Shown piece by piece: positions 9,330 to 14,380 of a DNA stretch of 26,907 nt. Made by a program: the position numbers and the translations under genes. The notes below the pieces were generated by a model. The model ran no database searches, was not told the origin of the DNA, and saw nothing but the letters and a program-made list of their open reading frames with translations. This stretch comes from a virus (Duplodnaviria; Heunggongvirae; Uroviricota; Caudoviricetes), in the IMG/VR virus record IMGVR_UViG_2778261676_000004; one strand, written 5' to 3'. Numbering within the stretch: position 1 is the stretch's first letter; every line of letters begins with the position of its first letter.

Positions 9330-9530
9330 CGAGATTAAAGTGCATTAGTTCAGATGCAAATTGACATTTTGTGGCACAGGGTAGAGCTAGCGTGGTTGTC
9401 CGCTTTGTGCCAGGAGCGGACGTCTAGTTCGCTGAACCACAAAAAGTCGTTTCTAGTTATATTACTGGCTCATTAGTATCTTTATGCGATAATATTTCAT
9501 ACAACCAAAATTATGATGAAGGGAGTTCAA

Positions 9531-10652
9531 ATGGCAATTACGGTCTATTCTCGTACATTCAAAAAGGAATTGGACATGGTTCAATTGTTAAACCATTACT
9601 CATCAGATAACGCACTCAATTTCAGTGATTTCAAGGAATTTGTTGCCTTTGATGCAGAGTGCCCAATTTGCAATGTAAGCGGTGCGATTGTTGTTTCAGA
9701 AGGTTATTCGAAAAGAACAAATAAGATAGTCAGCCAATCTCATTTTTCGTTTAGAACAAAAGACGGAACTGATGCACACAAAGTATTTTGCGATCATTAC
9801 AGTGGTAATGATAAGCAAATAGATTCATCAAGGGATGGTTTTATAAAATTCGGCACCTCAGGTTCTGAGATTACAAGTATAATTCGCGAGCTTGTATGTA
9901 GAGGTATTGAACATGATGAGTTCAATCAGGAAGATATTCGAAACATGCGGCAATGGTTTACAGAATTACGCCAGTCAGGCACTTTTTCTGTTAACTATAG
10001 CCCTCACATGATCAATCTAATAAGGGCCAGCATGTATTCCCGTAAGGGAGAAAGTAAATATATTGTAGATGAAGAGAGGAAAAATAAATCCTGGTTTGAT
10101 ATAAACGATGAAGTGTATCGTTCGTTAAGATTCAAATATCCATCATTGATGATCGACATGACTAATGAAAATAATTCTGTTTTCTATAATCTTGTGAATA
10201 GTACCACATTTACTAAACAAGCACATCGATTAGTAGCACGAGATCGAGGTTATCAGGTTTATGATAGAAGGTTGCTTAAAGAAAAATATGAAGCAACGAT
10301 AAGAGTTGCACAAAAAATAACCAGGCATCACGAATTTCTTTTTAGGAAAATCAGGGGTATATCCGCTGTTAAAAAAAATAACCCCCTTTTGGCTGTATCT
10401 GCCTTGCTTCTTTTTGTCTCGGACTGGAATGAAACAACTGCAATCAACAAATTCATCAAATTGTGTGGTGTAGGGAAATCTAAAAATAATGATGAGGGGA
10501 ATGTAATTGGCTTAAATCCCTTTATTCATTACGATGTCTGGAATGTTATTCATCAACTTAAGGATTTAATGGTTACACTTCCAGACTTCTCAAATCTTGA
10601 TGAAGAATTTGACAGAGAAAAATCCAGATTAATTGAACTTTATAAGCTCTAA
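9531..10652 (+). CDS. Hypothetical protein, cargo gene A (no family recognised)
   Basis: 373 aa from ATG 9531 with AAGGGAG 5 nt upstream; strongly AT-rich coding sequence against a roughly balanced phage backbone; possible metal-binding motifs ECPICN and HKVFCDHY; no Walker A or nuclease motif seen. Confidence 0.8.
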   Translation: MAITVYSRTFKKELDMVQLLNHYSSDNALNFSDFKEFVAFDAECPICNVSGAIVVSEGYSKRTNKIVSQSHFSFRTKDGTDAHKVFCDHYSGNDKQIDSSRDGFIKFGTSGSEITSIIRELVCRGIEHDEFNQEDIRNMRQWFTELRQSGTFSVNYSPHMINLIRASMYSRKGESKYIVDEERKNKSWFDINDEVYRSLRFKYPSLMIDMTNENNSVFYNLVNSTTFTKQAHRLVARDRGYQVYDRRLLKEKYEATIRVAQKITRHHEFLFRKIRGISAVKKNNPLLAVSALLLFVSDWNETTAINKFIKLCGVGKSKNNDEGNVIGLNPFIHYDVWNVIHQLKDLMVTLPDFSNLDEEFDREKSRLIELYKL

Positions 10653-11265
10653 CATAAACTAGCAGGCTGCGTATACAGTCTGCTAATTTTCATAGTAAAG
10701 ACTTCATGCTTCAGTCTCGAGTTGGAGCTATCCGGCACACATCACCCAGGCAATTCAACCGAAATTTTTCATGGGGGGTAGAGAAGTTTTGTCTCGAAGA
10801 TTTGCTTTACAGCATACTAATCATTGAACCTCTGTTGAACCATAAGAAACTGGCAAGCACAATCCGTTGCTTGGGCATTGAATTCGACGATGCGTCGTAT
10901 AGCTCTGACTTGAACAAAACATAAGGTTTTTAGGGCTGCAACAGCACCTCTGTGTCATAGGCGGAAGTTAACAAACATTAAAATCTCTAAATCTGTAGGG
11001 ATCAGACTCCTTCTATAAAAGGATACTGTTCATATCCTTAGTTGTATATAGGTGTGTTTAGAGTATTAGGATGCTAGTTTTGAAAATTAATTTTTTAAAC
11101 ATATTGAATTTTTTAAGAATTGGGAATAGTGTATAGCTTTGTCATGGCGGATTTTTTCTCTTCACGTATTTATTTGAACACTACTTCTTGCACCTGCAAG
11201 GTTACAATATCGTGTAAATTTGTTCACAAAGACATAGATTATAATTTTTACTTAAAGGAAATTCA

Positions 11266-12519
11266 ATGTCAAAAAATCTCCCGGTTTTATTAAGCTCGCC
11301 ATCAACAACTAATTTTCCTGCAACAGTTAATACTGAAATAGAATTCCTTTCGCAAGCTAGAAAGTTGTTAGATTCTGGCTTCCCTGATCATGCTCTTTTA
11401 GATATATGGAATGCATCCATTCATAATCTTAGGCGGCGAATTGAGGCTTATGGTTTAGACTTATTCCTTTCCGCAATAAAGGATGATAGTGGTCGTAAAA
11501 AATATGATAAAGATGGTGAAACAATAAACGAGAGATGGTCAGGTGTAGATGATTTAGTGCTAATAAGTGGAGCCACCAAATTAGGGGTTCTGCATAAGAA
11601 AGCTGGAAAATCATTAGAAATGATCAATTGGATGAGAAACCATGCCTCTCCAGCCCATGCAAGTGATAGTAAAGTAGAGTCTGAGGATGTGTTTGCTTTG
11701 GCTCTTATGCTCCAGAAGAATTTATTCGAATCTGATATGCCAGACCCTGGACATTCGCCATCTGGATTATTTGAACCCATAAAAAAATCTGAACTATCAA
11801 TTGAGAGCATAGACTTACTTAAAGATCAAATAAGAGCATTTAAGCAAGCTGATATAAGAATAACATTTGGATTTTTATTGGATTTAATAACTAAGGGGGA
11901 AAATCCTGCTTATGTTAATGCTAGCAAGTTGTTTGAACAAGCATGGGAAAGATCTAATGATGACCTTAAAAAAACAGCGGGGGAAAGATATCACTCATTT
12001 ATGCTGGAGCCCGAATCGGATACAAGTGAGGATAAAGGAGCAAAAATAAGAATTTTAGAGACTTTAGTAAAAGTTAATGGTGTGAAATTTATACCTGATG
12101 CTGCTAGGGCAAGTTTATACAGACATGCGGTTAAACAGCTAGCTAAAGCTAAGGATACATCTTACGGCTGGAATGATGAAGAAAGAGCAGCCAAGGCACT
12201 TATACAATTTGGACCTCATGTTCCATCTATTGCTTTTGAAGATGTATATCAAGAAATACTTACTGTTTGGGTGGGGAATTACTGGGGAAGATCTGATGCA
12301 CATTTAGTACTTCAACCATTTTTAGATGTGTTAAATAGTAATCAATTGATGGCTCTCTCACGGTTGTTCGTGGAGAATGAAAGAGCAAATTCAGAACTGG
12401 TGTCATCAAGGCCCAAAAGAAGAGCAATAGAATTACTTGAGATAATAAAAAATAATCTAACAATTCAAGCAAGCATTGATGAAATTGATAGGATCATTTC
12501 TGAAATTGATAAAATGTAA
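11266..12519 (+). CDS. Hypothetical protein, cargo gene B (no family recognised; possible HEPN-like R-x6-H motif)
   Basis: 417 aa; ATG 11266 with AGGA upstream; AT-rich; motif WMRNHASPAH (nt 11635-11658) fits the HEPN R-x(4-6)-H pattern, but this is a weak single-motif match. Confidence 0.85.
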   Translation: MSKNLPVLLSSPSTTNFPATVNTEIEFLSQARKLLDSGFPDHALLDIWNASIHNLRRRIEAYGLDLFLSAIKDDSGRKKYDKDGETINERWSGVDDLVLISGATKLGVLHKKAGKSLEMINWMRNHASPAHASDSKVESEDVFALALMLQKNLFESDMPDPGHSPSGLFEPIKKSELSIESIDLLKDQIRAFKQADIRITFGFLLDLITKGENPAYVNASKLFEQAWERSNDDLKKTAGERYHSFMLEPESDTSEDKGAKIRILETLVKVNGVKFIPDAARASLYRHAVKQLAKAKDTSYGWNDEERAAKALIQFGPHVPSIAFEDVYQEILTVWVGNYWGRSDAHLVLQPFLDVLNSNQLMALSRLFVENERANSELVSSRPKRRAIELLEIIKNNLTIQASIDEIDRIISEIDKM

Positions 12520-13152
12520 TTTATTTGCAATTAAGCCATGCTTTTTAGGTGGCTTATTTTTTTTGAATCTACTACTTATATTGATATTAGCAATGTAATT
12601 GCTAAAGTATTCCTAGCCCACTATTCATCTAAATATGGTTGTCGAAAGGCCCGCTTCTCGCTCAAAGCGGACTAGAAGGTTAGCTTGCGTCGGACTTGGC
12701 GTATTTAAAGAAGTGCTGGTGGTGACTGGTTGTTGTGTTCCATTTCTACAGAACAAAATCACAGAAACTATACCCAATAGTTGTATCTCATCAATGATGA
12801 GACAGCCTCATATTTATCAGGACTGGTGTACGTCCAATACAGGAGGTTGTCGTGCTGGTTCTCAAATGTGCGCTGGCTATTGCAGCTGTAATGGCAATTT
12901 ATTGTCTTGCTGTTGTTCTTATGGATCGCCTTTCTGATTGATTTTATATTGGCGAGGTAACGGGAGTTAAGTAGAATGGCTGCGGGTGCTTGAGGCTATC
13001 TGTCTCAGGCATGAACACCAAAGGCAGATAGAGAAAAGCCCCAGTTAACATTACGCGTCCTGCAAGACGCTTAACATTAATCTGAGGCTCAATCTATGAA
13101 CGGCAAATCTAGGTTAGCCTCTTACGTGCCGAAAGGCAAGGAGAAGCAGGCT

Positions 13153-13534: not shown

Positions 13535-13894
13535 ATGGCACTCACTGAATTCGGTAAGGCCGTTAGAAAAGCGAGGATAGATACCGACTGCACATTGCTT
13601 ACGATGGCCCAAGAACTGGGAGTAACTTCAGCTTTTCTGAGCGGTTTAGAAACAGGCAGTAAGAAAATCCCCAAAAAATGGGTAAAAGAGATTCAGGCTT
13701 TTTTCCTGAAAAGAGGTTATGAGATTAATAATCTTCAGGAATTGGCTGATGTATCTAATCAGTTTGTTTCCCTTGATGGATTGTCGCAAAATCAGCAAAT
13801 GTTGGTTGCTGGTTTTGCTAAATCCCCATTAACACCAGAGCAGTTAAAGCGAATAGCAGAGTTGATGAAAAGTATTAATCATGTTGAGGGATGA
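13535..13894 (+). CDS. HTH XRE-family transcriptional regulator
   Basis: 119 aa; N-terminal HTH-like TLLTMAQELGVTSAFLSGLETG; ATG with GAGGA RBS; stop immediately before the metallopeptidase gene. Confidence 0.8.
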   Translation: MALTEFGKAVRKARIDTDCTLLTMAQELGVTSAFLSGLETGSKKIPKKWVKEIQAFFLKRGYEINNLQELADVSNQFVSLDGLSQNQQMLVAGFAKSPLTPEQLKRIAELMKSINHVEG

Positions 13895-13897
13895 TCG

Positions 13898-14380
13898 TTG
13901 GAACAATCAGCTTACACATTACGTGGAAATCGTGTTGCACCAATGAGTATTGTTGATATAACAACTCGCGCTGTTAACTATAGCGCGATCTTCGACCTTA
14001 AAACGTTGAAAAGAAAAAAGCGGTTAGACCATGCATTTGAGTTGTTGAGTGAATATGGGATAACGCTCAATATCGTTGAGGATCGTGCGTGGACTAAAGC
14101 TACATATGATTTGACATCTGGGCATTACGATCCAATTACACTTACAATTAGTGTGCCGAATCATACATTTGAGTTGGCATGTAAAGGTGATAGAGAAGCA
14201 TTATTTGTGCTCTTTCATGAAATCGGACATTTGGTGTTGGGGCATAGAGCGTTATTTCACAGTTCCAATAAACCACCTTCGCAAATTGAAGATGCTGAAT
14301 GGCAAGCAGATTTGTTTGCTGAGGTGGTTTTGCGCGAATTAGGATTTTATATGGATCAACTATCATTTGACTTTTTATAA
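13898..14380 (+). CDS. ImmA/IrrE-family zinc metallopeptidase (HEXXH)
   Basis: 160 aa; HEIGHLVLGH contains the HEXXH zinc-binding motif; apparent TTG start 4 nt after the upstream stop, alternative ATG at 13943. Confidence 0.8.
   Translation: MEQSAYTLRGNRVAPMSIVDITTRAVNYSAIFDLKTLKRKKRLDHAFELLSEYGITLNIVEDRAWTKATYDLTSGHYDPITLTISVPNHTFELACKGDREALFVLFHEIGHLVLGHRALFHSSNKPPSQIEDAEWQADLFAEVVLRELGFYMDQLSFDFL

Follow-up and report, generated by a model that had tools for sequence, protein, structure and literature searches.

A conserved protein of a lambdoid prophage carries an R-x6-H motif in a predicted HEPN-like domain

HEPN-MNT toxins, such as SO_3166 (PDB 5yep) and those of PDB 8xdj and 7ae2, are proteins of about 130 aa whose genes always lie beside that of an MNT antitoxin. 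The solo prophage HEPN proteins HepS (PMC13043305) and Tha (PMC11087260) are self-contained abortive-infection systems. HepS, the 'HEPN solo' Abi protein of the Salmonella Gifsy-1 prophage (PDB 9oik), is a tetramer; the tail-tip protein J switches it on, and it then cleaves the anticodon loops of tRNAs (PMC13043305). Tha is a tail-activated HEPN system of S. aureus prophages: it responds to minor tail proteins, acts as a non-specific RNase and loses its defence activity when the motif histidine is mutated (PMC11087260). DUF4145 (PF13643) is a recognised HEPN family often found in R-M and defence contexts (PMC3710099).

The protein studied here, protein B, is encoded in a 26,907-nt stretch of viral DNA (IMG/VR record IMGVR_UViG_2778261676_000004; the window), which corresponds to a Qin/Rac-like lambdoid prophage of E. 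coli. Its gene is located downstream of the replication-region gene DUF977, in a block of low GC content (36% versus 49% elsewhere). The features of the gene and of its predicted product are the following.

11255-11259: AAGGA, Shine-Dalgarno-like, 6 nt 5' of the protein B ATG
11266..12519, + strand: protein B CDS, 417 aa plus stop
11323..11730, + strand: N-terminal HEPN-like domain (N-domain), residues about 20-155
11635..11658, + strand: R124-N125-H126-A-S-P-A-H131, predicted catalytic R-x6-H motif, codons 124-131
11761..12516, + strand: C-terminal all-alpha helical-repeat domain (C-domain), residues 166-417, confidently predicted
12532-12556, + strand: terminator-like hairpin, 13 nt past the protein B stop, followed by U8 (12557-12564)

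The position and residue numbers given to the motif in a first-pass annotation, which had read it as HEPN-like, are exact on the translation, where the R-N-H-A-S-P-A-H segment stands in the context EMINWMRNHASPAHAS. The hairpin (MFE -12.2 kcal/mol, z -2.6) and U8 tract just past the stop codon suggest that the gene closes its own transcription unit; the hairpin is absent from the output of a consensus scan. Protein B is under purifying selection, dN/dS being 0.09 in the comparison with the Providencia copy and 0.05 with the Psychrobacter copy.

Comparison with the described systems reveals shared design but distinct architecture. HepS occupies in Gifsy-1 the same accessory slot as protein B, past a replication-region gene. 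However, HepS is 218 aa long, carries an R-x4-H motif (R100-H105) and has no 250-aa C-terminal repeat domain, whereas protein B has 417 aa and an R-x6-H motif. HepS was also missed by an HMM profile search of PDB sequences and is thus not a sequence-level relative; no sequence homology of protein B to the HepS family was found. Tha resembles protein B in being a prophage-encoded single protein in which HEPN is joined to a second, uncharacterised domain. In Tha, however, the HEPN domain is C-terminal (184-296 of 301) with an R-x4-H motif (RNSIMH), and confidence in the prediction of the second domain is low, while protein B has an N-terminal HEPN-like domain, an R-x6-H motif and a confidently predicted, highly conserved helical repeat. 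AbiJ shares with protein B the RN-type motif, the single-protein Abi design and the fusion of an HEPN effector to a presumed sensor (PMC3710099), but there the HEPN domain follows AbiJ-NTD domains at the C-terminus, whereas protein B carries it at the N-terminus, ahead of a new domain. The AbiJ family Abi_C (PF14355) gave the best Pfam match of the consensus of the 417-aa clade, covering the motif (residues 103-136; E 0.028, 14.9 bits) but falling below the cut-off of 24 bits; protein B lacks both an Abi_C match above the gathering score and a C-terminal HEPN domain. DUF4145 matches were likewise sub-threshold (two distant members, E 0.007; 475-aa clade consensus, E 0.14), and protein B has none of the usual partners (REase, helicase, Zn-ribbon) to which DUF4145 is fused. 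Finally, neither an MNT gene nor any other partner is conserved at protein B loci, in contrast to HEPN-MNT systems, and no MNT antitoxin gene adjoins the protein B gene. In sequence-profile comparisons no established HEPN family matched at a significant level, and HMM profiles of the full-length protein and of the N-domain retrieved only chance hits among PDB sequences (a uridylyl transferase and ribosomal protein L6). The sequence-level link of the N-domain to HEPN families is weak but consistent.

The bare pattern is within chance expectation. Protein B contains 22 R and 10 H residues, and at least one R-x(4-6)-H match was present in 81% of 20,000 shuffles of its sequence, with a mean of 1.5 per shuffle; the caution of the first-pass annotation, that a single short motif is weak evidence, was well founded. 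The stricter R-[NDH]-x(3-5)-H form was present in 20% of 20,000 shuffles. It is the conservation and the structural position of R124-H131 that place this motif beyond chance. In an alignment of 27 close homologues, no invariant stretch exceeds L117-E-M-I-N-W-M-R-N-H-A-S-P129 plus H131 in length. Among 40 motif-bearing representatives sharing 17-57% identity, R124 and H131 are present in all 40, as the annotation's reading would require, and N125 in 38. Just seven positions are invariant in these 40 sequences (W48, R124, H131, W227, L292, E305 and G341), and realignment of the N-domain left W48, R124 and H131 as its only invariant columns. The family consensus of the motif is phi-R-N-x-x-S-A-A-H-P. 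Counted over all 46 representatives, R124 is found in 40, N125 in 40, H131 in 41 and H126 in 27. The invariance of R124 and H131, the near-invariance of N125 and the variability of H126 fix the reading as R-x6-H. Two alternative motifs were discarded: R124-x1-H126, in which H126 is unconserved, and R281-x5-H287, the second R-x(4-6)-H match of protein B, in which H287 is unconserved. N125 provides the polar residue (N, D or H) directly after the conserved R that was described for HEPN active sites by Anantharaman et al. (PMC3710099).

The remaining 6 of the 46 representatives form a divergent clade of about 440-456 aa (P0236, P0241, P0245, P0256, P0262 and P0267 in alignment A2) that keeps both domains and has lost R124, N125 and H131. 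Its members are presumably catalytically dead derivatives.

The AlphaFold2 model of full-length protein B is all-alpha (pLDDT 87), with an N-domain at residues about 20-155 and a C-domain at 166-417. A Foldseek search of the PDB with this model returned only HEAT/ARM-like repeats, with E above 0.02. Since the long C-domain dominated this search, the N-domain was modelled separately (pLDDT 91, pTM 0.87). The following elements were observed in the N-domain.

Residues 22-36: helix 1
Residues 40-62: helix 2
Residues 64-106: insert with three short helices
Residues 111-126: helix 3
Residues 139-154: helix 4

The predicted domain has HEPN topology, that is, two alpha-hairpins with the insert between helices 2 and 3. 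In structure comparisons the highest scores were obtained with AF0298 (2hsb; 10.3), HepN toxin SO_3166 (5yep; 9.5), Roquin (9.3), TTHA0636 (9.3), AMPylated HEPN toxin (8xdj; 8.9), HI0074 (8.8), sacsin HEPN (8.5), Csm6 (8.3), AbiA (8.2), Csx1 (8.2) and LsoA (7.9), with RnlA at 7.1 and HepS at 6.3. For unrelated bundles (hemerythrin, cytochrome b562, designed proteins) the scores did not exceed 7.4. The same ranking was obtained from the full-length model. Helix 3 of the predicted structure ends with R124 and N125, and H131 lies in the loop toward helix 4, the same place, at the helix 3 end and loop, as expected for the HEPN superfamily (PMC3710099). Thus structure prediction and fold comparison, in which known HEPN structures lead the ranking, agree with residue invariance in supporting the original HEPN-like reading. 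A second conserved acidic residue, in helix 2 (E-x3-[KR]), occurs in many but not all families of the HEPN superfamily (Pfam clan CL0291; Anantharaman et al. 2013). Helix 2 of protein B has no invariant acidic residue: D41, at its start, is present in 32 of 40 sequences, position 49 holds N or D, and only the 417-aa clade keeps E60 in every sequence.

Many proteins of 130-250 aa (P0300-P0419) match the N-domain profile with E around 1e-40 to 1e-49. We do not claim a stand-alone form of the domain: the short proteins inspected stop at or just past the domain boundary or end in frameshift-like tails, and resemble members of the 475-aa clade that have been truncated or frameshifted.

The C-domain gave only generic matches of the HEAT/ARM/TOG/MIF4G type in structure searches, and its consensus had no meaningful match in Pfam. 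It nevertheless carries four of the seven family-invariant residues (W227, L292, E305 and G341), and N218, P320 and N338 are nearly invariant. The conserved residues form motifs of the types NFYxE305 and GN338xxG341xS. We propose that the C-domain is a sensor or regulatory domain, and the invariant motifs hint at a second functional site without known relative.

Protein B belongs to a widespread family. A collection of 5.8 billion proteins contains 435 full-length homologues from many lineages, almost all of exactly 417 aa, with 57-94% identity; they are called 'hypothetical' wherever the source names them. The identical protein is encoded on at least 1000 contigs for which the source names E. 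coli or Enterobacteriaceae. In species-representative genomes, copies of nearly constant length and 48-63% identity were found in Campylobacterota, Lentisphaerota, Acidobacteriota, Bacteroidota, Chloroflexota, Spirochaetota, Cloacimonadota, Firmicutes and three CPR lineages, namely Saccharibacteria, Wolfebacteria and Kaiserbacteria (loci L007-L032). Exhaustive profile searching of 1.84 billion cluster representatives (50% identity) retrieved 419 relatives, among them clades of about 430 aa and about 475 aa, in which both domains are common and identity is 17-30%. Conservation from E. coli to CPR bacteria is remarkable for mobile cargo.

The only label found for protein B is PHROG 27609, 'unknown function' (E 7e-186). 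Protein B had no match in Pfam, PADLOC or NCBIfam, PADLOC matched no member of the wider family, clades included, and a search of deposited phage genomes gave no match. A literature search on its E. coli accession found nothing, and neither this accession nor the motif peptide is present in the parts of the DefensePredictor supplements that were examined. The family is thus undescribed, with no Pfam, NCBIfam or PADLOC model, while its kind, the prophage single-gene Abi HEPN effectors, is known. The missing models, the lack of detectable sequence kinship to HepS, HEPN-MNT proteins or solved structures, and the combination of an N-terminal HEPN-like domain with a new conserved domain make it a new family within that kind.

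In the window, the gene is part of a low-GC cassette of 3.27 kb that contains protein A, an integrase remnant and protein B. The cassette is 99.8-99.9% identical in an unrelated tRNA-Ser integrative island with trbJ/trbL. This near-identity between a lambdoid prophage and a tRNA-Ser island indicates that the cassette is transferred whole from one kind of mobile element to another. It is rare, being present in 13 of 5426 complete E. coli genomes. The corresponding spans and components are the following.

9402-12673 of the window, 10001-13272 of L041 and 12001-15580 of L006: matching spans of the cassette
9513-10652: protein A, 379 aa, PHROG 12525, unknown function
10706-10924: integrase remnant, a 72-aa ORF between protein A and protein B
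5285-6867 of L043 and 2869-5042 of L042: loci around the integrase-remnant slot

Protein A had no match in Pfam, NCBIfam or PADLOC; its N-terminal stretch is rich in Cys and His (CPIC...H...CDH). The 72-aa ORF resembles part of a 'site-specific integrase' fragment and is 43-44% identical to a second locus copy. In E. coli SF-468, protein A and the integrase remnant are followed by a DUF4365 protein in place of protein B; the position after the remnant is therefore a variable slot. A two-gene system of A and B is not obligatory, as protein A accompanies protein B only in the near-identical Enterobacteriaceae cassette and is absent beside it in Providencia, Burkholderia, Cyanobium, Acinetobacter and Pseudomonas. 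A Serratia montpellierensis contig carries a 100% identical protein B copy alongside protein A.

The settings of other copies are diverse. A 476-aa paralogue lies between DUF2254 and an integrase fragment on the IncF plasmid pC5103. In Pseudomonas the gene comes after the Prim-Pol gene for replication in a prophage, and in Cyanobium it is inserted on the reverse strand between portal and terminase. No neighbour of protein B is conserved in 32 loci. Among 148 flanking proteins from about 26 diverse loci, none of the 25 most frequent families occurs more than three times and none is a nucleotidyltransferase; the flanks contain integrases, R-M genes, a few defence genes and many housekeeping genes. 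A toxin-antitoxin reading was discarded since no neighbour is conserved. In Providencia/Morganellaceae islands (L001-L005 9560-10276), a convergent DUF6602 gene always follows the protein B homologue, an arrangement not seen in other taxa; these islands also contain DUF932, anti-restriction, YeeP-like GTPase, type I R-M and RelA_SpoT genes.

On balance, protein B is probably a solo RNase of the HEPN superfamily, gated by its C-domain, with a single-gene role in abortive infection or superinfection exclusion as the most likely function. Such a role would follow from the solo gene and its mobile low-GC cargo setting, as for HepS and Tha. In a proposal modelled on characterised HEPN enzymes, a dimer or higher oligomer would bring the R-x6-H motifs of two protomers together in a composite, metal-independent RNase site. 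The paired site would cut RNA (tRNA, mRNA or rRNA) and leave 2',3'-cyclic phosphate ends. The 250-residue C-domain would keep the RNase off until a trigger is bound, so that an infection cue would release it and lead to abortive infection or superinfection exclusion. The gene stands alone, with no conserved partner or antitoxin, and travels as low-GC cargo of prophages, integrative islands and plasmids. What the analysis shows directly is the motif and its invariance, the HEPN-like predicted fold, the solo mobile setting and the purifying selection; RNase activity, dimerisation, a sensing C-domain and a role against phages are inferred. The main caveat concerns the putative sensor: its very high conservation agrees better with a trigger or substrate that is itself conserved than with a phage protein under rapid evolution. 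We can only tentatively suggest that the family is a pan-bacterial single-protein immune RNase whose C-domain senses a conserved trigger (a nucleotide, a nucleic acid carrying modifications, or an RNA universal among hosts or phages) rather than a quickly changing phage protein, which would explain the 48-63% whole-protein identity across phyla.

The same chemistry would be expected of an active HEPN RNase working outside defence, whether as a toxin of mobile elements that serves addiction or competition, as a means by which a prophage takes over its host or counters defences, or in the processing of RNA. The unusual conservation across phyla, C-domain included, the housekeeping genes among the neighbours, and the absence from PADLOC results in every clade and from the examined DefensePredictor material are in keeping with this explanation. 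We nevertheless consider it rather unlikely: no antitoxin or immunity partner is conserved, the patchy spread on prophages, islands and plasmids and the variable slot are typical of defence cargo, and defence is the role of HepS and Tha, its closest analogues in function. HEPN-like folds can also be non-catalytic, as in nucleotidyltransferase substrate-binding domains, MtlR, sacsin and Roquin. That the N-domain is such a nucleotide-, ligand- or RNA-binding or scaffold module is improbable, given that R, N and H are its most conserved residues whereas the Rx4-6H motif is typically lost in non-catalytic HEPN domains (PMC3710099). A chance motif in a generic four-helix bundle, with an artefactual HEPN likeness, would agree with the shuffling frequency of the bare pattern, with sequence profiles below significance and with the readiness of four-helix bundles to match each other; the conservation and position of the motif largely refute it, and we regard it as highly improbable.

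For a protein labelled 'hypothetical', the preferred reading, a C-domain-gated solo RNase, offers a predicted active site (R124, N125, H131) and a predicted layout, with the effector at the N-terminus and a candidate sensor at the C-terminus. Should protein B prove to act in defence, the catalogues would gain both an HEPN family and a regulatory domain that are new, and identifying the trigger would be worthwhile given such unusual conservation.

Finally, an HTH protein (119 aa) and an M78/ImmA-like metallopeptidase (160 aa) are encoded by adjoining genes at 13535-14380 of the window. The pair gave weak PADLOC matches to capH/capP and RmrA-type regulators and may represent damage-responsive regulators of the prophage or of neighbouring cargo.
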